Assembly (NCBI GenBank): GCA_018648805.1
Contig: JABGQM010000013.1
Coordinates: 20,067 to 84,066, forward strand
DNA length: 64,000 nucleotides
Direction of reading: 5' to 3'
From: Verrucomicrobiota bacterium
GTDB lineage: Bacteria > Verrucomicrobiota > Kiritimatiellia > UBA8416 > JABMPJ01
In this document: positions 1,880 to 49,761 of the stretch, piece by piece
Layout of the letters: every line of letters starts with the position of its first letter
How positions within the stretch are numbered: position 1 is the stretch's first letter
Program-made: the position numbers and the translations under genes
Notes under the pieces: generated by a model
What the model was told of the DNA's origin: nothing
The model's database searches: none
What the model saw: only the letters and a program-made list of their open reading frames with translations

Positions 1880-1972
1880 AGATTAGGTAGATAGACAAAG
1901 TCTCGGCTGCGGCACTCCCTCTTACTCAATCTGTCTACCTAATCTATCTACTTAATCTATCTACTTAATCTC
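1880..1972. repeat. Intergenic repeat cluster: inverted copy AGATTAGGTAGATAGAC plus three tandem 13-bp units CTAC(C/T)TAATCTAT
   Basis: Read directly: 1880-1896 agattaggtagatagac, then 1936-1972 ctacctaatctat ctacttaatctat ctacttaatct. Located between the GNAT start and the GH4 stop. Confidence 0.6.
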
Positions 1973-2007
1973 TCCCTGCCATAGGACGGAACATATACAG
2001 TTGCCGT

Positions 2008-3381: not shown

Positions 3382-3454
3382 CTCCTTGACTATATCAAAA
3401 GTCGTTGTCAGCTATCTCCCGCGAATGGGGCAATGACCCGAGCACCACCTCCGG

Positions 3455-3526
3455 GGCCTCGCGCTCGGCGAGCGCGGGCTACATCAGACCCCTTCTCTGT
3501 AGCCCGCTCTCGCCGAGAGCGAGGCC
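3455..3526. repeat. REP-like palindromic element copy 1 (intergenic, GH4 / PDZ-protein)
   Basis: ggcctcgcgctcggcgagcgcgggctac - 17 nt - gtagcccgctctcgccgagagcgaggcc. The arms are near-perfect reverse complements. Confidence 0.85.
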
Positions 3527-3620
3527 GGACGGCAAGCATCGCCCTGCACGTCCCTCTTCTGAATTCGGCACTTGGGTATTTCAGATTTCCTTGGGTGTTT
3601 GGGTGATTGGCATCCATCCT

Positions 3621-6600: not shown

Positions 6601-7280
6601 ACCCACGGTTTGAGGAGGATCTTCTCTTCATGCTTGTACTGTTCGACCACCCGCTTGATCCAGCCACGCACATGTTCCAGATCGCTCTCGTCGCCAGTGG
6701 AGAGAAGGAACAGCATGCCGAACCCATTCAGGGACTTCCATCCCTGCGTATCGAGATCGTAGCCACCCTCGGTCTTCACCCAGTGGGCCATGTTGCGGAC
6801 GATCTTGTCCGACTTCTTGCAGTTGAGCGGCCATGTCTTGCTGTAGGCGCCGAGTACAGGTAGCTGCACAACCACCTCTTCCGCCTCCTCGGCCGCTTTG
6901 ATCATCAGCTTGATCTTACCGTCCGTCGCCTCGGCCGCCGCAATGATCCTGGCCAACTGGATGCGCGGATCAATGTCCTTGAGCACCTGACCGTTGATCG
7001 ACTCGATCCTTTGGCCGGTCACGAGCTTGCCGGTCGCTTCTGCAGGGGAGCCTTCCTCGATCTTACCCACGTACATCTGATACGGCGGCAGGCGCAATTC
7101 GAGGCTCATTCCCACGGGACCAAAGCGGTCGATGCTTTGGCTGGCCGACGTCTCATTCGGATGCCAGAAATTGAACAGGTTGGGCTGCTTATAGAAGGAC
7201 TCCGCCATCGCATGGCTGCCCACCCCGACCCACAACGCTGCCATCATCCCTATCATCCGCATCATCAGTTGCCGCTTCAT
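3621..7280 (-). CDS. Large secreted PDZ-domain protein with alpha/alpha-toroid-like central region, HEAT-like repeats and Cys-rich C-terminal region (paralog 1 of 3)
   Basis: ORF 3621..7310; the probable start is the internal Met MKRQLMMRMIGMMAALWVGVGSHAMA (signal peptide). PDZ-like block GKIEEGSPAEATGKLVTGQRIESINGQVL. Blocks shared with 12695..15121 and 49813..51573: AYSKTWPLNCKKSDKIV, EYYLRTGDKS, TGHTGGGIGEVWR, SFGI, TPRKTLRLSGAPR. Confidence 0.6.
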   Translation of the reverse strand: MKRQLMMRMIGMMAALWVGVGSHAMAESFYKQPNLFNFWHPNETSASQSIDRFGPVGMSLELRLPPYQMYVGKIEEGSPAEATGKLVTGQRIESINGQVLKDIDPRIQLARIIAAAEATDGKIKLMIKAAEEAEEVVVQLPVLGAYSKTWPLNCKKSDKIVRNMAHWVKTEGGYDLDTQGWKSLNGFGMLFLLSTGDESDLEHVRGWIKRVVEQYKHEEKILLKPWVFGSAAIPLAEYYLRTGDKSILPVIQKLVRHVEGTMFNGAWSGRGGLVFGYMVGGHMNAAGIHGPTFLMLAKECGVEVNESIMLESLRQFYRFAGKGSVPYGDGFPETYFIDNGKTGALAFTMAAAAALTPRGEQSVYARARDVSALRGFYGTNYMLTGHTGGGIGEVWRGPAMGFLYEKEPAKYRAFMDGRLWHLEMSRRFNGSFGILNGTSRYDTPSTWGQMMALQYTIPRKTLRLSGAPRGKWSKPYALPERPWGTAADDDFCEITPAVDADGRIPAFDDSIEGGPINGVERLFRATEDTKALGLQYCLHPDHEMRREVGAGYVKRNEQDEKIVAMLKHKDARVRRAALSVIHSVHKGTHVLPAERLTDEMVGLVIAMVNDPEASWWCVENALRVMSVLPKEKTAPHLDRLLYFLGHEEWWLQHAALQALAPLAVDDATYARILPKIGDMVVNNVNCPATGPIGGLTKRLATASPKVQAAAVVMLSKSYTDFPADLQPPAGDAAADQLKGDMKKYVVPVSLRTIAYQLVSAPGGFSALYQVAKARHPEEILPYKQKYLWADYASFSPDVKAALKPIVLEQLVPEFVSRNLGTLRSELTKGGSAHCRLTDLSSLYRKAGVTDYEWQNFGPDRSAMKWHYYSFDPPEKLEWVPRGNRSRKMTMPKGMDRWNSSEFDPVSAGWKKGLAPFGQVDGRAQGEGDANRFIGCNNPVCRCGDQVNTLWEKEVLMIRGTFTFPPMREGYSYRILFGGRSHVGLGNGPTVSINGKQIASGRAAPRRGQGGRARGALISKSMMASFQGQDVTLSAICHLNKHHRTGNIHGFLNVWLEEMKNPPVSDELAWDGLKFISLQSSEWQQDQDSDEGELSTEEGLFRFDGTFVANESVLGSWKPIGKVAKIDDFKPGAEVDPALPRYRSITLKENGFTDSSERYWSGDTLMQISGREAGALKMKTRTIDGEAYLFIETGGFTFYHERQHYKHPRTWNSPWFVLKR

Positions 7281-15289: not shown

Positions 15290-16369
15290 TCATTCTGGCG
15301 TCCCCATCGTTGCTGCATGATTCTCTGCCAGTAGTCGCGCCAGCATTCCGCCGGGGGTGACGTGGGGCGTGAAGAGAGAACTGCCCTGGTCGATCACAAA
15401 GCGGTTCCTCTGCTCTGCGGCCGCGAGATCGCCATCGCGGTTGCGCATCTCCAGCACGAGCATCCGATTCTCCTGAAGGGCCTCAGCGAATCCGGGCGCG
15501 TAGCCCGCGCGCTCAAGATCCCAAGCCGGGCAGGCGATTACGCGCTTCTTGTGCTTCAGGAGCCAGGCGAGAATCTCTTTCTCCTTCGGGGAATGCCAGC
15601 CACCCAGGTAAACATCCGCTTCAGGCAGATTGCCGATGTGCGGGGCGTTGCGGCTGCAGAGTACGCCAAGGGTTTCCGCATTCCAAAGGGCGGGATTCCC
15701 AATGCCGCGCAACCCATTGCCAAAAGTCTGCACGCATTTCCACGGGTTCATGCGGATGTATTGGGCAATCTTCTTCTCGGCCTCGGCAGAGCGCACAATC
15801 ATTTCATAATAATTGCGGTGCCAGATTTTCTTTTTGAACGGCGGAAATCTTCCGGCCTTCACGCCCTGAATATAGGCGTGCGTGGAGCGCGATTTGAAAG
15901 CGCAGATGAAATCGCCCAGCCCTTTTTCGCCCTTTTGAATTCGGATCAGCGCATGAAAATGATCAGGCATAATGCAATAAGCTAAGAGCGAGGGCGAAGG
16001 CGCAGAAGGGGCAGAATGCGGGGAAAGAGGGGGAAGAGGGGAAAGAGGGGGAAGAGGGGCAGACACAAGGCCTGCCCGTACGGGCGCGCCTTGTGTGCGC
16101 CCCTCCCCAGAGCGCTCCTCCCCAGAGCGCTCCTCCCCTGAGCGCCCCTCCCCAGAGCGCCCCCTTCCTGCGCCTTGGGCCTCTAGAGCAATTTCTTCCC
16201 AGATGAGAATCAGGATTTCTTTCGCCCCCTCAGCCGCAAAAATATCGCCCGCCTCCCGATGCGCGCAGAGGGTGATGAAATAGGTTCCTCCGCCGGCATA
16301 ATCATGCCCTTTGAGCCGAATGCTTCGGCGGTGATGCTTTTGGGGATCATAGGTCATTGAGGCGGCCAA
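15290..16369 (-). CDS. REP-associated tyrosine transposase (RAYT, IS200-like HuH Y1) with an internal low-complexity insertion and a C-terminal DprA/SLOG-like Rossmann domain
   Basis: HDYAGGGTYFITLC (beta1), YCIMPDHFHALI (HuH) and WHRNYYEMIVRS (catalytic Tyr) match the RAYT/IS200 pattern. The C-terminal ~140 aa (GVLCSRNAP...VIACPAWDLE...EQRNRFVIDQGSSLFTPHVTPGGMLARLLAEN) resemble DprA motifs (IVGSRNAS; RRNRII..SG.LITAR). A continuous 359-aa ORF. Confidence 0.65.
   Translation of the reverse strand: MAASMTYDPQKHHRRSIRLKGHDYAGGGTYFITLCAHREAGDIFAAEGAKEILILIWEEIALEAQGAGRGRSGEGRSGEERSGEERSGEGRTQGAPVRAGLVSAPLPPLSPLPPLSPHSAPSAPSPSLLAYCIMPDHFHALIRIQKGEKGLGDFICAFKSRSTHAYIQGVKAGRFPPFKKKIWHRNYYEMIVRSAEAEKKIAQYIRMNPWKCVQTFGNGLRGIGNPALWNAETLGVLCSRNAPHIGNLPEADVYLGGWHSPKEKEILAWLLKHKKRVIACPAWDLERAGYAPGFAEALQENRMLVLEMRNRDGDLAAAEQRNRFVIDQGSSLFTPHVTPGGMLARLLAENHAATMGTPE
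15985..16175. repeat. Repeat-rich in-frame insertion inside the RAYT gene: GA-rich tandem repeats, a 34-bp near-palindrome, and CT-rich tandem repeats
   Basis: 16019-16060 (gaggggaaagaggggga)x2; 16063-16096 acacaaggcctgcccgtacgggcgcgccttgtgt (contains the perfect 12-bp palindrome gcccgtacgggc); 16101-16170 (ctccccagagcgctc)x4. It encodes GRGRSGEGRSGEERSGEERSGEGR...LPPLSPLPPLSPHSAPSAPS between the beta1 strand and the HuH motif. Confidence 0.8.
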
Positions 16370-17274
16370 TCCAGCGTGTAGCTGTGCCCTGGCTCCTTGT
16401 TATGCTGCTTCAGAAGCGGCGAATAGGCCGCAACACGGATCTTCCCGGCAACCGGGTCGAAACGCATGGTCTGCAGCCAGCCGTTCCCGCCATTGGGAGC
16501 CCCCTGGTAGTCGCAGAGAATCTCAAGAACGTCGCCACCGCTGTCGTTGACAGAGACTCCGTGGGCAACCGCGGGCACATGGCCGCCGACCACGATCCGG
16601 ATATTGGGGCTCATGCGCACAAGTTCATCCCAGATCAGGCGGCCGCGCGGGCCCTTCTTGTCGCCCCTCAGGAGATAGGCGTGGGTGGCCAGAATGATCG
16701 TCTCTTTCGGATGATCGGCGGCAGTCTTCCGCGCCCAGGCCAGCTCCGACTCCGTCGGGTCGTAGGTCAGAGAGAGGACCATCCATTGCCGTCCACCCGC
16801 GGAAAAGCGGCAGGTGTTGACCCCGTTATTGGTGGGGCTGACCGATCCCCCGTACCACGGCTGCGCGGCAAAGCGGGCGGGGCCGAAATACGTGTTGTAG
16901 AGGGTCAGCTTTCCGGGGGCCCCGTCATGGTTGCCGGGCAGCACGCTGTAGGGCACATGACCGTCGAGCACCTTGTGGGCCCGATCGGCGGCCTCCCATT
17001 CGGACTTGTTCTGCGGGGTCTGAACAATATCGCCGAGGTGTATCACAAAGGTCGTATTCAGTTCCGCGGCCGTCTCCTTGATCCAGCGGGTCTGCGCCAC
17101 GTAGGTCTCAGGGAACTTCTGACTGTAGAACTGCGTATCCGGGAGCAGAACGATGGTGAATGGATTGTCAATCCGTGGGGTGCTGCGCGGCACCGTCGCG
17201 CAACTGGTCAGCAGCAGCGCCACAACCAGCATCAGGACATTACCAACCACTAGTCTCACCCTCTTCATAACCAT
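16354..17274 (-). CDS. Calcineurin-like metallophosphoesterase lipoprotein
   Basis: HLGDIVQ and LPGNHD phosphoesterase motifs. N-terminal lipoprotein signal MVMKRVRLVVGNVLMLVVALLLTSC. Its ATG overlaps the stop of the upstream gene (TGATG). Confidence 0.7.
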   Translation of the reverse strand: MVMKRVRLVVGNVLMLVVALLLTSCATVPRSTPRIDNPFTIVLLPDTQFYSQKFPETYVAQTRWIKETAAELNTTFVIHLGDIVQTPQNKSEWEAADRAHKVLDGHVPYSVLPGNHDGAPGKLTLYNTYFGPARFAAQPWYGGSVSPTNNGVNTCRFSAGGRQWMVLSLTYDPTESELAWARKTAADHPKETIILATHAYLLRGDKKGPRGRLIWDELVRMSPNIRIVVGGHVPAVAHGVSVNDSGGDVLEILCDYQGAPNGGNGWLQTMRFDPVAGKIRVAAYSPLLKQHNKEPGHSYTLDWPPQ

Positions 17275-20153
17275 CACCTCTCCTCGTGTGCCAAACGCCA
17301 TGCATTCAACTGCTCATGAAACTGCTTGTAGATACTCAAGTGCTCCTCGCGTGCGGGCTGCTGGGAGCGCCGCCGCGTTTGCGCCGCCTCATCCTTGCGA
17401 CCCAGCGCCTCCAGAATGATCGCCTTGATCGCCCATAGCTCGGTCAGAATGTCATCCGGCTCCTTCACGGTCACCGTTGCCGCGTCCTTGCGCCAATGCT
17501 CGATCCCCTTACTCCGCCGGCCCCGATAGTAGCGCAATTTACGCGCATCAATCGCCTTATCGATGCACTCCAGCGCCCCGTCCCAATCCTTGAGTGCCAT
17601 CTGGGCCAGCGCGCCACCATGATGCCGCGGGGCACGCCACCCGTAACGCTCCGGTAGAAATGGAAGGAAGGGACCCGCAAAGGTGCGTGCCGCCAGCGTG
17701 TAGTCGCCCGCCGTCAACGCACGGTACGCCAGCTGGATATCACTGATCTCGATGTGGACCTTCATGGCCAGCGTAACGGCAAAGGGGAAACCGAACTCCG
17801 ACTTGTAGACGAGCCCTGAGCAATGCCAGGCAACGGTTCCGTCGCGGCGCAACAGGAAGACATTGGGCAGGCGATCGGCCGACAGAATCCCCAACTGCTG
17901 CACCATCGGATTATCCAACCCACCGGGAACCATGGCGGCAGCGCAGCTCCATTCGTTCGTCTTCATCAGCCGCTCGACCCGCTGCGCATCGTCGGTCAAA
18001 AAGGCCAGGCGTACATCGACCTCTTTGTTCACATGCTGATCGGCCAAGCTCAATGCACTGCTCACCACGCCCCTGACGTAATCACGCAATTGAAAAACAT
18101 ATTTGGGCACGAAGCCCTTCTTGCCCTGCACCACCGCGAAATCTGCTTCAGACTCGGGGGGCGGCTCGATAAAGAGCAGCAGCGTCAGACGGCCCTCTGT
18201 GTCATCCGGCAGGGAGAGAGCGCTGCCATCGAGATTCTTGAGTTCACACTTCGGGAAGGGCACCGCGTTGGTATTCCATCCGTGATTGACGATATGAGCA
18301 CGGCTCCATCCCATGCGGTCGCCACGCGTGCTGTTGGGCTTCAGCAGGTAGAAACGGTGGTAGCGGTTGAGGAGAAATGAGCGCACGCCCCACATGGGAT
18401 GTGCGCTGTCGGCCAGCAATGCCAGCGTCCGGGTGCGGTACTCCTCATGCAGCTCCCGGCTATTGGCTTCCAGCGCCAGAATCGCTGCGGCGGCCAGTGC
18501 CGATGCCGGTGCCGCATCGCCCCCCGATGCCTCGACCAGCTGTCGGATTTCTCGTTCGGCATGGGGACCTTCTTCGCGAAAAGAAGCCTTGGCCAGACAG
18601 AAGCGCGCCACCACGCCCTCGGCCGGCGATACCTTTGCCGCCAACACGGTGTTCGCCTCCTGCACCGCCTGCTCCAAATGCGCGGGGTCACAAGCCAGAT
18701 TCCACATTCCCAGCAGGGCAATGATTCGCCGGTTGCGTACCAGCCACAGTTCCGGCGCGTTGGCGTGTTGCTTGATGGCCTCACCGCACAGCTTCTCAGC
18801 CCTCTGGTAGTTCGCCATCGCCTCTTCGCGCGTCAGTCTGTAACGGAACGGTGGCGGAGTGAAGCACGCTTGGATAGCGCGGAGTATCTCATTGGGCTCC
18901 GCTCCTGCTGGCCTCGCGCTCGGCGAGCGCGGGCTACTTTGGAGCCCGCTTCCCTGTAGCCCGCTCTCGCCGAGAGCGAGGCTCTCTGAGGGCGCATTCG
19001 GTGCCACCGGATCGGCCACCAGGAAATCCCCAATAAACAACGACTGCAGCTGAGCCAAGTAGCGGTCGTGCGACAGGCGTGCCTCGCTGATCTTGAAAAT
19101 TCCGCCGTCAAGACTCATCACCCCCACGTTCGAATCCGGGTTGACCCCGAACGGATTCAGCACCGTGTAGCCGAAGGCGTTGACGAACAGGGCGTTGGGG
19201 TTGGCACCGCCATAGGCTTGATAGGCCACATTCCGTTCACCCTCCGGCAAATGCATGGCGTGCCAGTCCAGTCCCATCTTGCGCAGCACCTTTTCGCCGG
19301 CATCAGGTAGCTCATCGAGATTGAAGCTGTAGACTTCAAAGGCCCCCGGGAAGAGCTCCTGCTGCTCTTTAACCTGCTGCATGAAGCGCTCAATACCAGA
19401 GCTCTCCTGCGACCAGTAGACCAGCAGGCACTGATGCCCGATGCGGTCACCCGGAATGTAGAGGGTGGTGCCATCGGAACGCTGATAGCTCCCTTTGCAT
19501 TTCACGGCCAGCGACTTCAGACTCAGCACGTTACGGCGAAATGCGATGACTTCAGGATTGCCTGCGCAGCGCTCGTCCATGGATCGCTCTATGAAGTAAT
19601 CCAACTCGCCTGAGTCAAGGTCCTTCGCGATCGTCGCCCCGATCATCAGGCTCTTGGGCTCCGCCGACGTGCCGCGGTAGCGTATGATCAATGCTTCCAG
19701 AGCCTCTGCCCGCTCCTCAAGCGAGGCGTCACTATTGGACTGATCCCGCTCCGACAGCAGCAGGTCGGCTTCGAGCCTGACGCCTGCCCATTCATCCGGC
19801 GCCTGCATCAACTGAGTGCAAATATCATACAGGACCTCCCGGTTACGGTCGGTTCTCTCCAGCGTCAGCACCACCTTCTGGTTCTGGAGCATCATGCCTA
19901 ACAGCTGAAACCGTTTGGGGTCGTCGGGGTGGCTTTCAAGAAGCTTGTCTCCCCCACGGACCACACGCTTGCAGGCCCGTCGCTGCTCGGCAGAACCCGG
20001 CTTGCCTGCTCTGGCCTTCTGACTCGCCGCTTGCAGGGCGGCCATCTCAGCAGCGGGAACGGGAGCGGCACCGAACGCAGCAGGCAGCAGCGCCAGCAGC
20101 AGCGCCAGCAGACAGGCGCCCCGTATCAAAACATCCATGGCCCGAGTCAGCAT
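17274..20153 (-). CDS. Secreted protein A: N-terminal helical region plus two TlpA/thioredoxin-like domains lacking CxxC (paralog of 22350..25346); carries an in-frame REP element
   Basis: Signal peptide MLTRAMDVLIRGACLLALLLALLPAAFGAAPVPA. TlpA-like fold pattern ELKNLDGSALSLPDDTEGRLTLLLFIEPPPE...LPNVFLLRRDGTVAWHCSG, with IEPPPE in place of WCxxC. 959 aa. Confidence 0.55.
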   Translation of the reverse strand: MLTRAMDVLIRGACLLALLLALLPAAFGAAPVPAAEMAALQAASQKARAGKPGSAEQRRACKRVVRGGDKLLESHPDDPKRFQLLGMMLQNQKVVLTLERTDRNREVLYDICTQLMQAPDEWAGVRLEADLLLSERDQSNSDASLEERAEALEALIIRYRGTSAEPKSLMIGATIAKDLDSGELDYFIERSMDERCAGNPEVIAFRRNVLSLKSLAVKCKGSYQRSDGTTLYIPGDRIGHQCLLVYWSQESSGIERFMQQVKEQQELFPGAFEVYSFNLDELPDAGEKVLRKMGLDWHAMHLPEGERNVAYQAYGGANPNALFVNAFGYTVLNPFGVNPDSNVGVMSLDGGIFKISEARLSHDRYLAQLQSLFIGDFLVADPVAPNAPSESLALGESGLQGSGLQSSPRSPSARPAGAEPNEILRAIQACFTPPPFRYRLTREEAMANYQRAEKLCGEAIKQHANAPELWLVRNRRIIALLGMWNLACDPAHLEQAVQEANTVLAAKVSPAEGVVARFCLAKASFREEGPHAEREIRQLVEASGGDAAPASALAAAAILALEANSRELHEEYRTRTLALLADSAHPMWGVRSFLLNRYHRFYLLKPNSTRGDRMGWSRAHIVNHGWNTNAVPFPKCELKNLDGSALSLPDDTEGRLTLLLFIEPPPESEADFAVVQGKKGFVPKYVFQLRDYVRGVVSSALSLADQHVNKEVDVRLAFLTDDAQRVERLMKTNEWSCAAAMVPGGLDNPMVQQLGILSADRLPNVFLLRRDGTVAWHCSGLVYKSEFGFPFAVTLAMKVHIEISDIQLAYRALTAGDYTLAARTFAGPFLPFLPERYGWRAPRHHGGALAQMALKDWDGALECIDKAIDARKLRYYRGRRSKGIEHWRKDAATVTVKEPDDILTELWAIKAIILEALGRKDEAAQTRRRSQQPAREEHLSIYKQFHEQLNAWRLAHEER
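18910..18982. repeat. REP-like element copy inside the protein A coding frame
   Basis: ggcctcgcgctcggcgagcgcgggctac...gtagcccgctctcgccgagagcgaggc is translated in-frame as ESLALGESGLQGSGLQSSPRSPSARP. Confidence 0.85.
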
Positions 20154-20259
20154 GTATTCCTCTTTGCGAGCGGGAGAGATCAGGTAATGAGATTAAGTAA
20201 CAGGATTAAGAAAGACGAGCCTCATACTTCATCTCGTTACATAATCTTCTATGTGGGCT

Positions 20260-22203
20260 CTACTCCACTGGTGTCAGCGTGAAGTCTCTTACGGTGAGGC
20301 CTTTGTTGGGGGCCTTGCAAGTGAACTGGAGTTTGTTCCTGCCGGCTTTCAGATCCATGGTGACCGGCTTGGTGTCCACCCAGTCGCCCATGGAGAGCGG
20401 GATCTCGATCTCATACATGTTGCGGCGGTTGACCCGCATCAGGAAAATGCGGTCTATGGTTACCGACACAATCTGGGCCGAGAAGGCATACTTGCCGGCC
20501 TCGGGCAGCTCCAGCGTGTATGAAAGCAACTCGGGGCGGATGCCCCCCAGGCTGTAGTGCGCTTGAACGAACGAGTCGTCGAAGCTCTTCATGAAGCGGA
20601 TCTTCTCGGTGCTGGACTCCTTTGAACAGGCGGCTACGGGCACCGTGATGACCCCATTGGCATCGGTGGTGATGGTGGTGTCCGCTTCGGTCAGCTCAAT
20701 TTGCGGGACGTCTGGTGCCTCGGGAACCGCATCGGCCTCAGGAGCCCACCCGGTCTTGTCCGACACAGCCGCCTCATTGGACTCGGCAAACTCGGCCCCG
20801 GTCATCGCCTGCTCTTTCAGATCCTCTGCTTCAACGACAGCCAGTTTCTTGTAGAAGGCCAGCGCTTTCCAGAACCCGCCGCCAACGCCAAAGCTCATGC
20901 GATTAACGCCGCCTTCTCCGAACGCATCACCCAACCAGTTGGCGCGGTGCACCTGCCTATACGCATCTGTGATCGGGCGCACTCTGGATTCCAGTTCGAA
21001 GTCGAGACCACACTGTCCGCGGAAGCGATTAAAGGTCCAGTGTGCGCCAAAGACGGTCGTCCACCCGTCCGGTGTCCAGTGGCTCATGGCCGCATGTCCC
21101 GTCTGAGGAGCGGGTCGGGACGGAATACCAAACGCGTGCGTCGCCATCCGGCCCGTAAAGGCACGGGGGCCACAGATCCCGCCCACAAGAAAGTAGCTCT
21201 GCATAGCAGACAGGTTGTGGGCCTCGCGACCGGCAGCACGCGCGCCGCCAGCGTTTGATGTATAGGGAACATCGCTCTTGGTGATGCGACAGTACCGCCA
21301 CCTATAGTCTTCCTTGCGCATGTGGTCGGGGCGATAGTTGCGCATCATCTTGCGCATCCAAACGGCATCCTCAAGCGGGCGAAAGGCAAATATGAAGCGG
21401 CAGTCCCAACCCGTCAATGTGCCAAAGGCCGGGTCCAACTCACCACCCGCGTAGGCCTTCTCATAACTCAGATAGAAGTCCACCATGGCCTCGGCGGGCG
21501 TCTTGCCTTCCGGTACGTGGCTACCATCGGGGTGTTCCAGCGAGCTGGCCAGCGCCCACAGGCGAAAGAAACCACCCTGGGCATCCGAGGCGGCATTCTT
21601 GCTGGCCTTCTGGATGGCCTTGTAGTTGCGTATGGCCTGACCGTATTTGGCCTCATAAGCGCCGCCCAGCTCCATCACATCCACGATCAGAGCGTCGTCG
21701 TTGAGCAGCAGATCCACATACCCCTTCTCTGTTTCGCCCTGCTGAGCGAATTCGGCCATCTGCTTAGCGCCATGTGTCAGCAATGCGCACTTTGCCAACT
21801 TAGCGTGCATCTCATCGCCGCTCAGGAAGGGAGTCGCCTCTTCAAGCAAGGCCTCGACAGCAATGATGGCATTGCTCTGCGCTGCCGCGTATGGGGGATA
21901 GCCTCTACAGAAGGTAACCGGCGCCATCTTGAGGTCGTTCGGATTCGGCGCCTTTGGGATCTTTGCAATCTTGCCATGCGCCTCCACAAAAACGCTCTTC
22001 TTCGCCTCGTCGACAGCTGGAGCCGCGGCGGTGATCTCTTTCTTCAGACCTTCAAGCATCTCGGTGTACGATGCCAGCAGCTTCTCCCCTGCGGGGCTAA
22101 GCGGAGTCTTCTCCCCGCGGGCCTGAGTAAAGGATGCGATCACGCAGAAGGCGAGGCAGGCGGCCATGATGAACGTGCCCAGAGATCCACAACTGCTTCC
22201 CAT
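20260..22203 (-). CDS. Secreted transglutaminase-like (Cys-His-Asp) domain protein C with C-terminal beta-sandwich region (paralog of 35628..37772)
   Basis: The probable start is MGSSCGSLGTFIMAACLAFCVIASFTQA (signal peptide); the track ORF start at 22350 would translate a REP element. Core GGICGPRAFTGRMATHAFGIPSRPAPQTGHAAMSHWTPDGW resembles the transglutaminase-like core G.C..FA...GIP.R...G.H.W...P..GW. Shared blocks NYRPDHMRKEDYRWRY, HWTPDGW. Confidence 0.55.
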   Translation of the reverse strand: MGSSCGSLGTFIMAACLAFCVIASFTQARGEKTPLSPAGEKLLASYTEMLEGLKKEITAAAPAVDEAKKSVFVEAHGKIAKIPKAPNPNDLKMAPVTFCRGYPPYAAAQSNAIIAVEALLEEATPFLSGDEMHAKLAKCALLTHGAKQMAEFAQQGETEKGYVDLLLNDDALIVDVMELGGAYEAKYGQAIRNYKAIQKASKNAASDAQGGFFRLWALASSLEHPDGSHVPEGKTPAEAMVDFYLSYEKAYAGGELDPAFGTLTGWDCRFIFAFRPLEDAVWMRKMMRNYRPDHMRKEDYRWRYCRITKSDVPYTSNAGGARAAGREAHNLSAMQSYFLVGGICGPRAFTGRMATHAFGIPSRPAPQTGHAAMSHWTPDGWTTVFGAHWTFNRFRGQCGLDFELESRVRPITDAYRQVHRANWLGDAFGEGGVNRMSFGVGGGFWKALAFYKKLAVVEAEDLKEQAMTGAEFAESNEAAVSDKTGWAPEADAVPEAPDVPQIELTEADTTITTDANGVITVPVAACSKESSTEKIRFMKSFDDSFVQAHYSLGGIRPELLSYTLELPEAGKYAFSAQIVSVTIDRIFLMRVNRRNMYEIEIPLSMGDWVDTKPVTMDLKAGRNKLQFTCKAPNKGLTVRDFTLTPVE

Positions 22204-22322
22204 GTAGCCCGCTCCCCGCGGAGCGGGGTAAACTCGCCGCTTGCCCCGCCTTGACGGGGAGAGCGAGGCCGATGTGCCGATGTCTACGCGTGGCCTCGCG
22301 CTTGGCAAGCGCGGGCTACGTA
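22204..22322. repeat. Composite REP-like element (long-variant arm with nested palindrome plus a second arm) in the B-C spacer, abutting the C start codon
   Basis: gtagcccgctccccgcggagcggggtaaactcgccgcttgccccgccttgacggggagagcgaggcc, a 22-nt spacer, then gcctcgcgcttggcaagcgcgggctac. The long arm matches the 46233..46342 variant. Confidence 0.8.
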
Positions 22323-22349
22323 CAGAACGATTCAACATGCGTAACTTCA

Positions 22350-25346
22350 TTATCTGATCTCCTTTGCAACGATACTCATTCTCTCTTCAAAAACTTCATA
22401 GGGTTCATTGAACCCGCGTATGCGACTGTAGTGGGTCGGATAATGGGTGGGCTTTACAGCGGCCTTGTTGCGAGCGGTTCTCGCTTCGGAACTACGACCC
22501 AGACCATCAAGCGCCTTGGATCGTGTGGTCTGCAGATGCAACATCGTGGTGCACGGATCTTCAGGATCGTGGTTGAACTGCCCTTTCCTGAGATGCCAGG
22601 CGATCGCGCTATCGACATCTTCCAAGGCAGCTTCATACTCCTTCAGGCCCAGATGGGCCAGGGCCCTACCATGGTAGCGCGAGGCCTTCCATTTGCTGGA
22701 GACCTCGTGTTGCGGCAGAATCGGTGTGTCCGCTTCGACCTTCTCGAGATAGGTGCCGGAGAAGAGCTGGACGGCCTTCTCGTACGCCTTTGCCTTCAAG
22801 GCTCGATATCCCGCTTCCGTGTCGACCCCATGGACCTGGGCCTCCCACGCGAGGGCACTGATGTGGGCAAACTTGCCAGACATCTGATAGGGCAGACCAT
22901 TCTTCTTCCAGGCAATGGTGCCATCCCGCCGGACAAGGAAGGAGTTGACATTCCGGTCGGCCGACAGAATCCCCAGCTGATTCACCACCGGGTTGCTCAG
23001 CCCCCCCGGGAGAATCGTGACCAGCCCCGGAAGGCCATACTTGTCGCGAATGGCCTTCACCATAGCGACATCATCGCTCAGGAAAACGGTCACGCACTGA
23101 AGACCGTTGTTATGCCTTCTGGCAAACCCGTAGGCACTGCCGAGAATACCGCCGGGCTGCGGGTTTTTGTTCTTCTTGGTCGCTTCGCCGGGCGGGGCGT
23201 AGATCGCGCGGGCCAGTTCATTGCTGCCATCGGAAGACGGTTCAACGAACAGCAACAGAGTCAACCGCTCACGCTTCGTGTCGGGGAGCGACACCGTCTT
23301 GCCATCCAGGTTCTTCAAATGAATCTCTGGAAGCGGCAGCGTCACCGGGGTGAGACCCACATCAATCATGTGGCGGCGTTCCGTGAATCGGTACTCGCGG
23401 GAGTAGAGATAGAAAATCGGGTTGCCGCGAAAGAGGTAGTACTGGTGGTAGCGGTCGCGCAGGAAGGCAACGAACGGGGCGATATCCTGCGACTGCGCGT
23501 CCGACACCAGAATCATGTCGCGGCACTGATGGTAAAGCTCCCGTGAGTCGGCATGGATAGCGAGGATGACCGCCGCGGCGTGTGTCTTCAGGCCCGCCTT
23601 CTCTCCGCCGCAATCCGCAACAAACCCCTCTACGATCACTTTCGCGCTGGCGTCCCCTTGGCGCAGCGCCGCTTTGGCCAGACAGAAGCGGGCGACCACC
23701 CCTGCCCCATCAGGGAGATCCAAACCAACCGTCGTGCGCGCCTCCTTGACGGCGTCCGGGAAATGCGTGGGCGATCCGCTGATGTTGGCCATCCCCATCA
23801 GTGCAATGATGCGATAGTTGCGCACCCGCCACAGATCCGACGCTTTGGGAGTGGCCGCAATCGCCTTGACGCAGAGGTCGTTCGCCTTCTTGTATTGGGC
23901 CAGTGCTTCGGCCTTGGTTAGGCGGTAGCGCTGTGGGATGGGCAGGAAGCAGGCGCGGATCGCCTTGAGCGTGTCAGCAGGCACGGCTACTGCCGGCCTC
24001 GCGCTCGGCGAGCGCGGGCTACTTTGGAGCCCGCCTCCCTGTAGCCCGCTCTCGCCGAGAGCGAGGCTCTCTGAGGGTGAATCAGCCACGAGCAGATCGC
24101 CGATCAGCAGCGACTGGATCTGGCTCAAGTGCCGGTCGTATTCGCCATAGCTGGCAACGTGACCGGTGGGCACCAGTCGCGGATAGGCAAACTCGTCATA
24201 CACGCTGGAGTGGGCGAATTCCTTGGCCTCTTCTGCGTTCTTGAAGTGGATCGCCATGCTGGGCGGCACAATGGCGTGGCCGAAGTGGTTGACCCGCAGC
24301 GCCGCGGGCATATGCAGCGCATAGGTGCGGAAGGTCTCGCTCTGCACACCGCCCGCCAACCGTAGCACGGTGCACGCTAGCCCAACCGACTTGATAATGG
24401 ACGCCCCAGCATCGGGCAGCTCGTCGACATTGAAGCTGTAGAGCTCCAACAGCCCCGGCGCCTCATCCTGCTGCTGCTTGAGCTGCTTGAGTTTCGCCAG
24501 CGAGGCCTCCGAATCCTTCGACCAGAAGACCGCATAGTAGGCGTGTCCCAGACGGTCATAGGGAAAAGTCATGGTACTGCCATCGAGGCGCTCGAACCTA
24601 CCGGAAAAGACAATATCCATCCGGGTGGCGCCGATCAGCGTACGCCGATAGTTGATGGCAGTCGGGTTTTCGGCGAACCGTTCGCTCAGGTCTGTGACCA
24701 GCTGTTCCTTGAAATCATAGTCACCCAGCTGGGTTGCGAGGCGCACGGCCGCCATCAGAAACTCAAGTTCGCCCGCTGTATCGCGGTAGCGCAGCCGCAT
24801 CTCTGACAGCGCCTTGATGCGCTCCGCCGCATCGGCGTCGCGCGCCGAAAGATCCCGCTCGGAGAGCATCAGCTCGGCATTGAGCCGATAGCTGCTGTAT
24901 GCATCGGGGGCCTCTCTCAACGCCTTGCAGGTCGCAAAGAAGGCCTCCCGGTTGCGTTCGGTGTTCTCCATCTGAAGCAGGCGCTGCTGCGCCTTCAGTT
25001 GGAGCGCGAGCACAGGAAACCGATTGGCCGCATCCGGCTGGGCCCGCACCAGAGCCTGCGCATCGCGGATCACGCCCTTGCACATGCGGCGCTTGGTGGA
25101 GGACGAGGCGCGGGAGGTCGCAAGGGCGGCGAGCTCGGCCTGGAGTGGGTCGAGGGACGCTTCGGGGATGAGCGCGGGCGATTGTGCCGCTGCCGGCAGC
25201 ACAGCAAGCATTAGCGAGAAGCCCAGGAGGAGAGAGCCGAGAGCTCTCGATAGAGCGTTGATTGCTGTCGATTGCTGCCGACTGCTGCCGACAGCTGTCG
25301 ATTCTAGACTCTCCCCATTCGGAAATCGACAATCGGAAATCGGCAT
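22350..25346 (-). CDS. Secreted protein B: paralog of protein A (double Cys-less TlpA-like domains), with an in-frame REP element and a 10-bp tandem repeat in its 5' coding end
   Basis: Collinear similarity to A, for example RLTLLLFVEPSSDG and NVNSFLVRRDGTIAWKKNGL. The same REP-encoded block ESLALGESGLQGGGLQSSPRSPSARP sits at the same relative position. The ATG is coupled 5 nt after the upstream gene stop with an AGGTAGAGAA RBS. Confidence 0.55.
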   Translation of the reverse strand: MPISDCRFPNGESLESTAVGSSRQQSTAINALSRALGSLLLGFSLMLAVLPAAAQSPALIPEASLDPLQAELAALATSRASSSTKRRMCKGVIRDAQALVRAQPDAANRFPVLALQLKAQQRLLQMENTERNREAFFATCKALREAPDAYSSYRLNAELMLSERDLSARDADAAERIKALSEMRLRYRDTAGELEFLMAAVRLATQLGDYDFKEQLVTDLSERFAENPTAINYRRTLIGATRMDIVFSGRFERLDGSTMTFPYDRLGHAYYAVFWSKDSEASLAKLKQLKQQQDEAPGLLELYSFNVDELPDAGASIIKSVGLACTVLRLAGGVQSETFRTYALHMPAALRVNHFGHAIVPPSMAIHFKNAEEAKEFAHSSVYDEFAYPRLVPTGHVASYGEYDRHLSQIQSLLIGDLLVADSPSESLALGESGLQGGGLQSSPRSPSARPAVAVPADTLKAIRACFLPIPQRYRLTKAEALAQYKKANDLCVKAIAATPKASDLWRVRNYRIIALMGMANISGSPTHFPDAVKEARTTVGLDLPDGAGVVARFCLAKAALRQGDASAKVIVEGFVADCGGEKAGLKTHAAAVILAIHADSRELYHQCRDMILVSDAQSQDIAPFVAFLRDRYHQYYLFRGNPIFYLYSREYRFTERRHMIDVGLTPVTLPLPEIHLKNLDGKTVSLPDTKRERLTLLLFVEPSSDGSNELARAIYAPPGEATKKNKNPQPGGILGSAYGFARRHNNGLQCVTVFLSDDVAMVKAIRDKYGLPGLVTILPGGLSNPVVNQLGILSADRNVNSFLVRRDGTIAWKKNGLPYQMSGKFAHISALAWEAQVHGVDTEAGYRALKAKAYEKAVQLFSGTYLEKVEADTPILPQHEVSSKWKASRYHGRALAHLGLKEYEAALEDVDSAIAWHLRKGQFNHDPEDPCTTMLHLQTTRSKALDGLGRSSEARTARNKAAVKPTHYPTHYSRIRGFNEPYEVFEERMSIVAKEIR
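23995..24067. repeat. REP-like element copy inside the protein B coding frame
   Basis: ggcctcgcgctcggcgagcgcgggctactttggagcccgcctccctgtagcccgctctcgccgagagcgaggc. Confidence 0.85.
25258..25303. repeat. Imperfect 10-bp tandem repeat (GATTGCTGYC x4) within codons 14-29 of protein B, followed by 2x CGGAAATCG
   Basis: gattgctgtc gattgctgcc gactgctgcc gacagctgtc. The unit length is not a multiple of 3. The same unit recurs at 39111..39142. Confidence 0.7.
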
Positions 25347-39106: not shown

Positions 39107-39110
39107 TCGC

Positions 39111-39142
39111 GATCGATTGCTGCCGATTGCTATCGATCTGCT
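39111..39142. repeat. 10-bp tandem repeat CGATTGCTRY x2 (+CGATCTGCT) in the MoxR-DUF58 spacer
   Basis: gatcgattgctgccgattgctatcgatctgct. The unit is shared with 25258..25303. Confidence 0.7.
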
Positions 39143-40228: not shown

Positions 40229-40301
40229 GGCCTCGCTTTCGGCGAAAGCGGGCTACAAAGAAGGCGCGTTCCTGTAGCCCGCTCTCGCCGAGAGCGAGGC
40301 C
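40229..40301. repeat. REP-like element copy directly upstream of moxR
   Basis: ggcctcgctttcggcgaaagcgggctacaaagaaggcgcgttcctgtagcccgctctcgccgagagcgaggcc. Confidence 0.85.
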
Positions 40302-44590: not shown

Positions 44591-44663
44591 GGCCTCGCGC
44601 TCGGCGAGCGCGGGCTACAGGGACGCGGATTCTCTGTAGCCCGCTCTCGCCGAGAGCGAGGCC
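44591..44663. repeat. REP-like element copy (intergenic, esterase / transporter)
   Basis: ggcctcgcgctcggcgagcgcgggctacagggacgcggattctctgtagcccgctctcgccgagagcgaggcc. Confidence 0.85.
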
Positions 44664-46186: not shown

Positions 46187-46232
46187 CTTGCCCCTCCTGT
46201 TCCTGGCTCCTTGATTCTGCATACACCGCCCC

Positions 46233-46342
46233 GGCCTCGCGCTCCCCGCCAAGGCGGGGCAAGCGGCGAGTTCACCCCGCTCCGCGGGGCGCGGGCTACA
46301 AAGAATCCGCCTCCTGTAGCCCGCTCGCGCCGCGAGCGAGGC
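46233..46342. repeat. Long-variant REP-like element with nested palindrome CCCCGCCAAGGCGGGG
   Basis: ggcctcgcgctccccgccaaggcggggcaagcggcgagttcaccccgctccgcggggcgcgggctac - spacer - gtagcccgctcgcgccgcgagcgaggc. Confidence 0.85.
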
Positions 46343-46595: not shown

Positions 46596-49500
46596 TCACC
46601 CCCGACACAGGGCCGGGGGGATCTTAATACCGAATCCGGCAAGCGTGTAGTCGCCCTGCCCGTTGCCCCTGCGCTGACACGGATGCAGCGCGACGCCCAA
46701 GTTTCTGCGATGCGGTCCATATAGATTCTGGGCCGTATTGTGGAGGGTCAGCACGATCGTGTTCATGCCCTCAGCCAGGTGATCCGCCAGGCGGAAGCGG
46801 TACGGCGCCATGTAGCGACAGCCGACCTCGCGCCCGTTGACGGCGAAGGTCACGACCCCATCGACCTCCCCGCAATCGAGCCAGGCCGCGCCTTTGGCCC
46901 CATCGATCGTCGTTTCATAGCGCATCCCACCCCAATAGAACGGCCATCCCGATTCCACCAGATCGCCAAAGGCATAGCGCGGCGCGGTCAGCTGGGGGCG
47001 CATGCCGTCGTCGGTGGGCACCAAATCGACCCCGAAATCTCCCATCAGGTAGAACGGTTCAAACAGAACATCCCCGGCCAGACGCTGCATCGTGATCCGG
47101 TTCTCACCCGCCTGAATCAGCCCGACCACATCAACCACCACCAAGTCCTGGCTCGACGGATGCCGACCGGCTGCCGCCGGCAGGGGGATGCCATTGATGC
47201 GCATAGAGGAAAGGGTCACCGCCTCGCCGACGATGGCGGTGATCCTGTCAGGTCCGGAAACGTCAATGCGGACCACAAGCGTCTCCGGCTCACCCGCAAG
47301 TTGCTCGGTATGCGTCGCCTGCTCGCCATCCGGTCCTTCGCACCAATCGATCAGCATCAGGTTCGGCTGCTCGGCAGTGATGGTCCAGCGGGGGACGGCA
47401 AGGGCGGATTCCGTATGTCGGTGAGGGCTTCGCTCTCGGCGAGAGCGGGCCACATGGGGACCACTGTCGCCGGACGTGGGCTTTCCCGGCACATGCGCAC
47501 TGAACAGCGTCTCTTGCAGCGGCTTCACCACCACACCTTCCGGTAACTCCGGCAGTAGATGAACCGCATGGAATGGCGGCAATACCACCCCGACCGGGCT
47601 TGCCCCGAGCCCGCAACGCGCCACCCCCACCGGGCTTGCGTCCTGCCCGCACGCTCCCGCCCCCACCGGGCTTGCCCCGGTGGAGCGAAAGATCCCCACA
47701 TCCCCCGCCGGATCATACACATGCCACTCCCCACCCCACCCCACACGTTGCGGGCGGTCGGACATGTTGCAGATATAATGTTCCTTGCGTCCGCCAACCA
47801 CGCGCGTGTGACTGATAACGGGCGCGCCCGCCTCTTCTAGCTGCAGCTCAATCGTCGGTGTGAGGCCACACTCGCGCAGCGCCATGGGGGTGGCGATGGC
47901 CTCCGGAGAGAGCCTCGCTCCCGGCGAGAGCGGGCTACATAGAGACAACTCGCCGGCAGCACGAACATCCCCGAATACCGCCTGCGGCGGGACCACGCCA
48001 TCCACCCGACAGTCCCGCGCGGGATTGAGCGCGATGATCCTTCCGCCCGCAGCCTGGAACGCCTCGAGCAGCGCCACCGTGGTTTCAAGCAGGTTGCAGG
48101 TCTCGGGAATGATCACCGTGGTATAGCGCATGGCCCCCATCTGCAGTCCAGCGTCCTTCACGGCGCCGTGTTTGGCCAGCAGCCACTCATCGCCATACTC
48201 GAATCCTACCTGCAATTTAAGCAGCTCATGGGAGACGGCGGCCAACGACTCCTCCAACGCCCGCGGATCCGGCAGCGTCTCCTCGGTGCCGGTCTCGAAG
48301 GGATGGCCGATGCTGCAGCTGCGCCCATCCATCGCAGTCCAGCAGGCGGACATCGGGTGGATCACAAGGGCGCTCGCGTCATAGGTTCCGCGCGTGAGCA
48401 GCTGCGTACTGCGGGCGATGGCATCGTGAAACCGCTTGTACTGAGGCCAATAGGGTTGCTGGAAAAAGTAGCTCGGCGGGCAGTCCCGCTTGGCCACCCC
48501 GCCCGTGGCGTAGCTGAAGGCGTGATGGACCATCAGGTTGACCCCCAGGGCGAGCTCGTAGTTCAGGAAGGCCGACTGCCCCCACATCGACGCACCCCAC
48601 CCCAGAAAGGTGAGCACCTCGCAACTGCAGGCACCGTCCTTCAACTGGTTGGCCACCGACGAGGCCTGCTTGAAAAGGATCACCGGACAGTGCCCCTGCC
48701 CGTTGCGCAGTTGGTCGAGGTAACACCCGCTGGAAACAGAACAAAGGAAGTCGTCGATGCCGGGGATATGCTCGTGCTCGTAGAAAGCCATCGCCGAGCC
48801 GAAGCGCTGGACCGACTTTGTGATGTCTCCCTCATCCCCACTCAGATGACCGGTAAAGCGGACCCCATGCTCGTCGCACCAGCGGTACATGGGATCGACG
48901 AACTCATTGAGAAAGAGATCGAGCACCAGCCCCCGGTAATCGAGCCGGACCTCTTCACGGCCGGGCAGCGCCTCGATAAGCGCCGGGAGATGATCCAGCA
49001 GACTGTAGCCCAGTCGTGCTTCGAAGATTTGTGGCAGCCGTTCGGTCCACGGCAGACTGGCTTCACGATCCAGGTAACTGTTCAGATCATCCGTGTAGAG
49101 ATGGGTGATGGGGTTGCCGAAGAACTCCTTGAGCTCGCGAAAGTAGACCTCGTGGGTCATCGCGATAAAGCGATCCGCCGTTTCCCGCTTGAGCGTGTCG
49201 ACGTAGCGTGGCAGGCGCGTCATCCAGAACGCGAGCACCTCCTGGTCCGGCGCAACATGCTCCACACTGAGTCGCTCAAATCCGACGGCATCATACACCG
49301 CCACCAGGTCCTGTATCCTGTCGAGTTCCGCGACCCGCTGATAGCCATAGCAGAGCAGTTTCTGCTGGTAGAACGGATCGTCCTTCTGCAGGCGATGCCC
49401 GACCGTGCCGCTGGGGAACCCCTCTTCGTCGTAGAGCCAGATCTCCAGTCCCAGCCGGCGGGCCTCCTCGCAGGTATGGCGCATCAGCGCAAGCCAGCGC

Positions 49501-49712
49501 GTCGACATGTAGTCGGTCTGGTTGCCCTCCCGCGCGTGCACGGTCATGCCTCTCAGACCCCCTGCCGCCGCCAGTTCAAGCTGACGGGAGATCTCCTCCT
49601 CCCGCTGATCCCCGTTCCAGAACCAGAACGGAACGGCGCCATTCGCGCGTGTATTGAATTCAATCATCGGTAGCGGTGCCGCTCTCCTCTTGTCCTCCGC
49701 GATCGTCTTCAT
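46596..49712 (-). CDS. Putative glycoside hydrolase (uncharacterised family; N-terminal TIM-barrel-like region with FWFWNG block, C-terminal beta-sandwich) containing REP-derived in-frame segments
   Basis: Start MKTIAEDKRRAAPLPMIEFNTRANGAVPFWFWNGDQ, preceded by an AAGGA RBS. A continuous 1038-aa frame reads through two REP half-sites and a 30-bp tandem repeat. Family assignment is tentative. Confidence 0.45.
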   Translation of the reverse strand: MKTIAEDKRRAAPLPMIEFNTRANGAVPFWFWNGDQREEEISRQLELAAAGGLRGMTVHAREGNQTDYMSTRWLALMRHTCEEARRLGLEIWLYDEEGFPSGTVGHRLQKDDPFYQQKLLCYGYQRVAELDRIQDLVAVYDAVGFERLSVEHVAPDQEVLAFWMTRLPRYVDTLKRETADRFIAMTHEVYFRELKEFFGNPITHLYTDDLNSYLDREASLPWTERLPQIFEARLGYSLLDHLPALIEALPGREEVRLDYRGLVLDLFLNEFVDPMYRWCDEHGVRFTGHLSGDEGDITKSVQRFGSAMAFYEHEHIPGIDDFLCSVSSGCYLDQLRNGQGHCPVILFKQASSVANQLKDGACSCEVLTFLGWGASMWGQSAFLNYELALGVNLMVHHAFSYATGGVAKRDCPPSYFFQQPYWPQYKRFHDAIARSTQLLTRGTYDASALVIHPMSACWTAMDGRSCSIGHPFETGTEETLPDPRALEESLAAVSHELLKLQVGFEYGDEWLLAKHGAVKDAGLQMGAMRYTTVIIPETCNLLETTVALLEAFQAAGGRIIALNPARDCRVDGVVPPQAVFGDVRAAGELSLCSPLSPGARLSPEAIATPMALRECGLTPTIELQLEEAGAPVISHTRVVGGRKEHYICNMSDRPQRVGWGGEWHVYDPAGDVGIFRSTGASPVGAGACGQDASPVGVARCGLGASPVGVVLPPFHAVHLLPELPEGVVVKPLQETLFSAHVPGKPTSGDSGPHVARSRRERSPHRHTESALAVPRWTITAEQPNLMLIDWCEGPDGEQATHTEQLAGEPETLVVRIDVSGPDRITAIVGEAVTLSSMRINGIPLPAAAGRHPSSQDLVVVDVVGLIQAGENRITMQRLAGDVLFEPFYLMGDFGVDLVPTDDGMRPQLTAPRYAFGDLVESGWPFYWGGMRYETTIDGAKGAAWLDCGEVDGVVTFAVNGREVGCRYMAPYRFRLADHLAEGMNTIVLTLHNTAQNLYGPHRRNLGVALHPCQRRGNGQGDYTLAGFGIKIPPALCRG
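47424..47456. repeat. REP half-site (left-arm-like) inside ORF 46596..49712
   Basis: gggcttcgctctcggcgagagcgggccacatg, read in-frame as ...HVARSRRERSPHR... Confidence 0.7.
47588..47680. repeat. ~30-bp tandem repeat x3 (core CCCCACCGGGCTTGC) inside ORF 46596..49712
   Basis: ccccgaccgggcttgcccc... / cccccaccgggcttgcgtcc... / cccccaccgggcttgcccc, encoding ASPVGAGACGQDASPVGVARCGLGASPVGV. Confidence 0.7.
47911..47940. repeat. REP half-site inside ORF 46596..49712
   Basis: agcctcgctcccggcgagagcgggctacat, read in-frame as ...SLCSPLSPGARLS... Confidence 0.7.
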
Positions 49713-49733: not shown

Positions 49734-49761
49734 GTAGCCCGCTCTCGCCGAGAGCGAGGCC
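49734..49761. repeat. Truncated REP element (right arm) immediately upstream of the 46596..49712 start and RBS
   Basis: gtagcccgctctcgccgagagcgaggcc, preceded by a degenerate left arm ccttcgcgctcg. It ends about 20 nt before the ATG. Confidence 0.8.

Follow-up and report, generated by a model that had tools for sequence, protein, structure and literature searches.

Two paralogous genes, here called A and B, were analysed in a 64-kb window (the whole stretch of 64,000 nucleotides) from contig JABGQM010000013.1 of a Verrucomicrobiota bacterium. The genes are co-oriented, lie 5 kb apart and encode proteins that are 37% identical. Each carries an inverted pair, or doublet, of repetitive extragenic palindromic (REP) units that is translated as part of the protein (Table 1). 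The database version of B has 953 residues, implying a start near 25211. Translations of both open reading frames (ORFs) contain ...PSESLALGESGLQG(S/G)GLQSSPRSPSARPA... in the identical frame, which confirmed the in-frame reading made in an initial annotation of this DNA. The size given there, about 26 codons or 78 bp, was not upheld: the doublet proper spans 72 nt (24 codons), the tract shared by the two genes is ~97 nt, and linker lengths compared with those of orthologues suggest that ~87 nt were inserted.

The doublet in A encodes LALGESGLQGSGLQSSPRSPSAR, within residues 388–416, and folds to a hairpin of −62 kcal/mol. It matches the doublet in B at 71 of 72 positions. Immediately outside the doublet, identity is 8/10 on one side and 13/15 on the other, and it falls to the background level farther out; the common flank includes TCTCTGAGGG. 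A and B agree fully in a 12-nt core of the spacer, TTTGGAGCCCGC, and at 17 of 18 positions in the full spacer, which continues (Y)TCCCT. Four of the six frames of the doublet are open, with one TAG-bearing frame per strand, so stop-free read-through is not rare by itself. Given these open frames and a length divisible by three, roughly 2/9 of random insertions would leave an ORF open. The frame that is used encodes a peptide rich in Gly, Ser and Pro.

Table 1. Positions of the repeats and genes in the window, of octamer sites on two related contigs and of the modules in the structural model of A
Feature	Position	Strand	Remarks
Gene A	17274..20153	-	959 aa, secreted; (helical module + thioredoxin-like fold) x2 + C-terminal helical module
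Gene B	22350..25346	-	998-aa ORF; paralogue of A, colinear
REP doublet in A	18911..18982		'G..C' unit 18911-18937 (+), 18-nt spacer, 'T..A' unit 18956-18982 (-)
REP doublet in B	23996..24067		units 23996-24022 (+) and 24041-24067 (-)
Near-identity tract in A	18901..18997		doublet + ~10 nt on one side, ~15 nt on the other
Near-identity tract in B	23986..24082		counterpart of the A tract; ~97 nt
Intergenic REP doublet	3456..3525		architecture and orientation as in A/B, spacer unrelated
Intergenic REP doublet	40230..40300
Intergenic REP doublet	44592..44662
Intergenic pair, 'long REP' + normal REP	22203..22319		69-nt long REP 22203-22271, REP 22293-22319; between B and next gene
Intergenic pair, second long REP + partner	46232..46342		long REP 46232-46300, REP 46316-46342
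Single REP	49734..49760	-	just upstream of likely start of GH106-like gene
RAYT-like (REP-associated tyrosine transposase) gene	15290..16369	-	Y1/HUH, IS200-like; ~1 kb from A
GH106-like (alpha-L-rhamnosidase-like) gene	46596..49709	-	third gene with in-frame REPs
Octamer repeat sites, contig L002	1970-2023, 2434-2478, 8739-8792
Octamer repeat sites, contig L117	7818-7961, 8027-8079, 9200-9267
A model, helical module	residues 34-208
A model, thioredoxin-like fold	residues 215-332
A model, helix	residues 363-378
A model, coil	residues 383-418		pLDDT<50
A model, helical module	residues 420-622
A model, thioredoxin-like fold	residues 636-778
A model, helical module	residues 791-958

The repeat belongs to a GTAG-type REP family arranged as REPIN-like doublets. 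The unit is a 27-nt palindrome, GCCTCGCNCTCGGCGAGNGCGGGCTAC, with the consensus GTAGCCCGC, and it occurs 15 times in the window when up to three mismatches are allowed, as against no occurrence in 100 shuffles. Fourteen of the units end in ...GGGCTAC, which reads GTAGCCC... on the opposite strand; the exception, at 47427, has GTGG. A single unit forms a 10-bp stem, with one mismatch, and a 3-nt loop (−16.8 to −18.1 kcal/mol, z ~ −3). The units are spread over ten loci, five convergent doublets and five singles. Spacers are 16–18 nt in every doublet, and each doublet folds as one long hairpin with a stem of ~25 bp, two symmetric mismatches and an energy of −62 to −64 kcal/mol (z = −5 to −6 relative to shuffles). 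Except at 40230, where the left unit is 'TT..AA', the doublets pair a left-hand 'G..C' stem variant with a right-hand 'T..A' variant. Six loci are intergenic, and the remaining four (two doublets, two singles) are translated in-frame within three genes. Apart from a TYCYCT end, the spacers of the three intergenic doublets are unrelated to each other and to the spacer shared by A and B.

All five doublets, starting at 3456, 18911, 23996, 40230 and 44592, share one orientation on the plus strand. GC skew is negative throughout the window and most genes lie on the minus strand; the orientation, seen in only five cases, may therefore be tied to the direction of replication or transcription, as in IS200/IS605-type elements. 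The two long REP copies are 94% complementary, and in each the normal REP ends, GTAGCCCGC...GCGAGGCC, flank a 45-nt internal insert; the long REP looks like a REP unit that acquired a loop insertion and was still copied. By eye, neither a shared target motif nor a target-site duplication was evident at the ten loci. A search of Rfam with the doublet found no family at the gathering threshold; one sub-threshold match to a microRNA hairpin was taken as chance. A scan of the genome collection with GCGGGCTACN{8,30}GTAGCCCGC found a full REP in none of at least 111 loci, and the matches were chance hairpins in unrelated phyla. The A/B-specific spacer gave 0 matches in a metagenome collection that lacks the source contig, a result not informative on other copies.

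Continuity of the A and B proteins

A homologue search with A returned 615 matches. Those listed were typically single proteins of ~940–960 aa covering 94–100% of A, and came from Verrucomicrobia (Akkermansiaceae, Roseibacillus, Luteolibacter), Lentisphaeria and metagenome-assembled genomes of Phycisphaerae. The search with B gave the same picture. All aligned homologues are continuous across the junction at which the REP lies, and hundreds of them have no REP. An AlphaFold2 model of A was built from an alignment of 73 sequences, with a mean predicted local distance difference test (pLDDT) score of 86.3 and a predicted TM-score (pTM) of 0.84. The REP-coded residues lie within the low-pLDDT coil, the main disordered loop between the two halves. 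Foldseek comparison of the model found ResA, DsbE and TlpA, with target TM-scores of 0.7–0.8, and the Pfam model Thioredoxin_8 scored 22 bits against a cut-off of 27. Neither thioredoxin-like domain of A has a redox CXXC motif; the corresponding position in domain 1 reads WSQESS.

Since REP-free homologues span the junction and the REP residues form a disordered coil in a confident model, these sequence and model data support a reading in which each paralogue is one continuous protein that tolerates the REP as an inter-domain linker. The initial annotation had preferred this reading and had placed the element between the first and second thioredoxin-like domains. Both views agree with the present data: the 615 homologues are single proteins, and in the model the segment is a disordered linker that follows fold 1 and precedes fold 2. 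Its other suggestion, that each paralogue is two adjacent genes separated by a stop-free intergenic REP, was refuted by the continuous homologues and the single fold. That four doublet frames are open and that most REPs are intergenic would suit such an arrangement, or a variant in which an assembly artefact created the read-through. Against this, hundreds of REP-free homologues are continuous proteins of ~950 aa, the A model is one integrated fold, and neither a promoter-like nor a terminator-like site is present at the element. Identical A and B proteins are, moreover, recorded on three contigs from NCBI, JGI and ENA sources, which makes an artefact unlikely. We therefore regard both variants as vanishingly improbable.

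Age of the insertions and turnover of the linker

At aligned codons, the nucleotides of A and B are 52.8% identical, and third positions only 38.8%, as against 71/72 in the doublet. The REP thus diverges far less than the flanking domains. The element is also missing from the closest orthologues of both genes. In what follows, P-numbers denote homologous proteins and L-numbers homologous contigs. The six closest A orthologues (P0002–P0007, 75–78% identical) lack it, as do P0122 (80%), P0123 (74%) and the B gene on L002, which are the closest to B. Removal of 29 residues from A leaves a 16-aa linker, equal to that on L115, and the same removal from B leaves 11 aa, compared with 10–14 in B orthologues. 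This match in linker lengths indicates a clean insertion of ~87 nt. A neighbour-joining tree was constructed from 846 gap-free columns, with the linker excluded and 200 bootstraps. A formed a clade with P0002–P0007 in 200/200 bootstraps, and P0002–P0007 were monophyletic without A in just 3/200. P0008, from the lineage of L001, fell outside this clade in 199/200.

These data show that the insertion is recent, and that it postdates both the A/B duplication and the split from the nearest sequenced relatives. They also show that the doublets in A and B are sister copies, since they have a common spacer unlike those of the other doublets; either one derives from the other, or both derive from one parent. 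The preferred reading of the initial annotation had the insertion precede the duplication, and took the identical frame as an argument for a true single protein. Both the comparison of A and B DNA and the survey of orthologues contradict that order of events, and the shared frame points to a direct copy relationship between the elements, not to antiquity. A REP present in the ancestral gene and kept in both paralogues as a linker would account for the like frame and position, and REPs of the same family do occur in the linker of a relative at 69% identity (P0008 on L001). Nevertheless, 71/72 identity beside third positions at 39%, the empty sites in all six closest A and the closest B orthologues, and the nesting of A in a REP-free clade with P0008 outside it make so old an insertion extremely unlikely. 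Such an age would demand several independent precise losses, together with an unexplained freeze of the sequence. The REP triplet on L001 was likewise considered as a product of the same ancestral event as the insertion in A, and was rejected because A is nested in the REP-free clade and P0008 lies outside.

Linkers were then compared across the family, where their length ranges from 11 to 76 residues. Among 142 homologues with recognisable anchors, 82 have a linker of 40–44 aa bearing LDPAxPPELKM and 42 have one of 10–24 residues; a few are longer. Close orthologues have linkers of 9–16 aa without any element, and short, empty linkers are found in the A orthologues on L115 and L116 and in the L002 B gene. 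In the L002 A gene and the L117 B gene, the linker holds an octamer repeat, CCCAAATA, which is also dispersed or arrayed nearby on those contigs. The start of the B orthologue is surrounded by CCCAAATA/CCCAAGTA octamers, in inverted pairs and in long arrays, and the linker has a degenerate in-frame copy (peptides like PNTQIPEHPNTQG). The linker of the L003 A gene carries a CCAACAWC repeat. P0005 and P0122, A and B orthologues encoded on one 32-kb contig of JGI 3300072015 (also the source of P0123), share the linker peptide GAS[TS]Q[LI]PKDPN[TS]QG, as read from the protein sequences; this peptide derives from a different repeat, and the L002 B orthologue is without it. A second metagenome scan yielded just the unrelated contig L118.

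The linker of the L001 gene, in the outgroup lineage of P0008, contains a triplet of units from the same REP family. Their orientation and frame are those seen in A and B, and the REP end lies 25 nt upstream of the L-x-A-I-Q codons, again as in A and B. L001 is a 5.3-kb metagenomic contig with two tandem A-like genes (2–1723 and 1957–4908) whose DNA is ~80% identical, and the tandem paralogue also bears REPs. There is no excess identity around the REPs of this pair (83–86% at the REPs, 57–90% elsewhere), which indicates that they are as old as that duplication. The 3′ intergenic regions of the two genes are 97–98% identical, with a single REP in each. This arrangement may reflect either a tandem duplication of recent date whose spacers were homogenised or two strains assembled together. 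Because the repeat content differs from genome to genome, the linker is a site that repeatedly takes up whichever small repeat happens to be active in the host. Its turnover is far faster than that of the rest of the protein.

Origin of the sister copies

Taken together, the data are best explained by a mobile REP doublet that was gained after the duplication in the linker of each of two single proteins, as sister copies; we put the probability of this explanation at roughly 0.8. A unit of ~87–97 nt, the doublet with a few flanking bases, would have entered the disordered linker that joins the halves of each paralogue. The insert would persist because its length is a multiple of three, because it offers a stop-free frame encoding a Gly/Ser/Pro-rich peptide, and because the loop was already variable in length. 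It would presumably be neutral. The REP/RAYT machinery may have copied the whole doublet as one unit to a hot spot or permissive site close by, perhaps hopping locally over the 5 kb. The RAYT-like gene of the window would be the candidate source of this activity.

The RAYT-like protein matched NCBIfam NF047646, the model for REP-associated tyrosine transposases, best, at 67.3 bits, or 71.6 bits (profile positions 5–133 of 146) once an insert was removed. The IS200 model scored 20–24 bits and Pfam Y1_Tnp 34 bits (cut-off 23). The HUH motif HFHALI and WHRNYYEMIVR...YIRMNP can be read in the ORF, and we take one of its tyrosines to be catalytic. A phmmer search against the PDB gave no match, and a C-terminal extension of ~150 aa matched no NCBIfam or Pfam model. 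The insert, at 15985–16185, is an imperfect hairpin of ~200 nt that interrupts the gene in-frame. One of its arms holds a 15-nt tandem repeat in five copies (GCGCYCCTCCCCWGA), the opposite arm is pyrimidine-rich, and a central palindrome lies at 16054–16105. The peptide it encodes, GRSGEGRSGEERSGEE...PLPPLSPLPPLSP, separates the HUH motif from the N-terminal part.

Several observations weigh against the explanation as a whole. The RAYT-like score lies below the curated NCBIfam cut-off of 80, and no REP, at up to three mismatches, flanks the gene or lies within 2.5 kb of it. Judged by its sequence, the gene may be inactive, interrupted as it is by the insert. Only A and B share a spacer, and the window offers no independent sign that whole doublets replicate. 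Under random targeting, two sister copies in homologous linkers of ~40 nt would be very unlikely, so that a hot spot, local hopping or homology-guided copying is required. Finally, the linker peptide common to P0005 and P0122 is, at the level of protein sequence, no less compatible with exchange between paralogues than with transposition.

As to the route, transposition of the whole doublet into a hot spot or permissive site is favoured, at about even odds. It is favoured because the tract of identity hugs the element, because the flanks are not homogenised, and because other lineages show independent hits. One such hit is the L001 insertion, which is independent of A and B and yet agrees with them in REP family, frame, orientation and distance to the anchor. 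The other repeat families in the linkers of L002, L003 and L117 also speak for this route, as does the GH106-like gene, with two in-frame REPs that its homologues lack. The doublet may alternatively have entered A or B once and then been copied as a patch into the paralogue 5 kb away, by short-tract gene conversion or by hairpin-induced template switching. Such a transfer would explain why, in two co-oriented neighbours, frame and orientation agree and the element stands 7 codons ahead of the L[RK]AI[QR]ACF anchor in each, and why the unique spacer and 10–15 nt of non-canonical flank are shared. P0005 and P0122 of a second genome may be a parallel case: they too have a linker segment in common, which stems from another repeat and is missing from the L002 B orthologue. 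On the other hand, flanking homology is only 53–80% and lacks long identical runs, and homogenisation of the flanks reaches no farther than 10–15 nt, which would be unusual for conversion of the RecA type. Repeated hits at one site without conversion are moreover seen in independent lineages and in paralogues of Opitutus terrae. A patch transfer is thus possible but somewhat doubtful.

It is also conceivable, though unlikely, that repeats are directed to the linker and not merely tolerated there, whether by a preference of the REP/RAYT system for DNA sequence or structure or by hairpin-triggered copying between paralogues. To our knowledge, the choice of target by a RAYT has never been directly observed. 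If repeats are so directed, the A/B pair and the L001 insertion would offer a natural system in which to define target choice and entry by REP doublets.

A further possibility is that the insert has been co-opted, with either the stable hairpin within the ORF or the Gly/Ser/Pro peptide under selection. It might act as a translational pause between the halves, for export or folding, as a site of mRNA processing or stability, or as a recombination hot spot that diversifies the linker. The hairpin is strong (−62 kcal/mol, z = −5 to −6 relative to shuffles), some repeat occupies the same site in many relatives, and orientation and frame recur in the neighbouring lineage of L001. However, the repeats found at the site have no relation to one another and are not all hairpins, conservation is no greater than in the genomic REP family, and there was no Rfam family at the gathering threshold. 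Close orthologues function with element-free linkers of 9–16 aa, so that nothing requires a selected function, and we consider co-option quite improbable.

Other repeats in the window and comparison with known systems

In the GH106-like gene, single REPs are read in-frame at 47912–47938 and 47427–47453, and a 36-nt tandem duplication lies in-frame at 47585–47656. Both REPs and the duplication are missing from homologues of ~960 aa. The database version of the protein (P0176, 704 aa) is identical to residue 682 and diverges exactly at the tandem repeat, which suggests a difference in assembly or copy number there. Next to B, the ORF at 20260–22350 on the minus strand encodes 696 aa, compared with 645–651 aa in its orthologues. 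Its first 50 codons read through the long REP and the adjoining REP (RSPRLPSARP...), and, judged by the sequence, translation probably begins ~50 codons farther in, at MGSSCGS.... The 5′ region of ORF B holds a 10-nt tandem repeat, ATTGCTGYCG, at 25251–25301; it precedes the start of the 953-aa version, and a related copy occurs ~14 kb away at 39106–39136. Segments 6175–6899 and 14013–14752, ~7.8 kb apart, are diverged paralogues with 72–74% identity over 118–278 nt; with this further diverged pair, old local duplications prove to be abundant in the region.

The closest known cases come from Opitutus terrae, and the phenomenon is already known: in-frame GTAG-REP dimers, some of them at similar positions in paralogues, were catalogued for that organism in 2013 (Di Nocera et al. 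2013, BMC Genomics 14:522, PMC3733652). That study sorted REPs into GTAG and CGTC super-families, and its Additional file 3 lists ~70 in-frame intragenic cases in O. terrae. Dimers or grouped repeats, encoding 20–30 aa, make up more than half of all intragenic inserts, and the authors suggested that intragenic REPs sit in flexible linkers or loops. Five ASPIC/UnbV paralogues (Oter_0490/0491/1795/1797/2953) carry three REP families at residues ~552–651, and the E2 acyltransferase paralogues Oter_4191/4192 have REPs at similar positions (PMC3733652). The REP sequence family in the window differs from those of O. terrae; the consensus GTAGCCCGC is absent from the supplements of PMC3733652. Three aspects were not found described: sister-copy inserts in two paralogues, a dated, tree-supported gain of a REP, and a single linker that several unrelated repeat families have colonised in neighbouring genomes.

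REPINs, as described for REPIN–RAYT systems (Bertels & Rainey 2011, PLoS Genet 7:e1002132, PMC3116915), are extragenic. The doublets resemble them in that two inverted REPs form one long hairpin, dispersed and non-autonomous, in a genome with a Y1/HUH RAYT-type gene. They differ in that two of the five doublets lie inside genes and in that spacers are shared only between A and B, which makes replication of whole doublets putative here; the RAYT-like gene, for its part, has no REPs beside it and falls short of the curated cut-off. The classic in-frame selfish palindromes are the Rickettsia palindromic elements (RPEs), described as inserted in many unrelated protein-coding genes (Ogata et al. 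2000 Science 290:347; 2002 Genome Res 12:808; summarised in PMC10969869). The resemblance, in-frame palindromic repeats tolerated at positions compatible with the fold, is one of function. RPEs of the RPE-1 type, unlike the doublets, are ~100–150 bp long, belong to an alphaproteobacterial intracellular parasite and have no RAYT association, and they are presumably unrelated to this REP in sequence.

Neither the kind of element nor the mechanism is new. The A/B pair nonetheless provides a clean, datable 'exonisation' of a bacterial selfish repeat, with a large host family, known empty sites and an insert in a disordered loop, and it supplies candidate target sites for REP/RAYT insertion experiments. 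For annotators, REPs in high-GC Verrucomicrobia are often translated and are a poor basis for splitting genes. The REPs of O. terrae remain the nearest parallel, since they share the phylum (Verrucomicrobia), the short GTAG-tagged palindrome, the frequent inverted dimers and the RAYT association. The O. terrae paralogues, however, mostly carry different REP families, whereas A and B hold sister copies with the same spacer and flanks, and here the insertion is dated by orthologue comparison and a tree.

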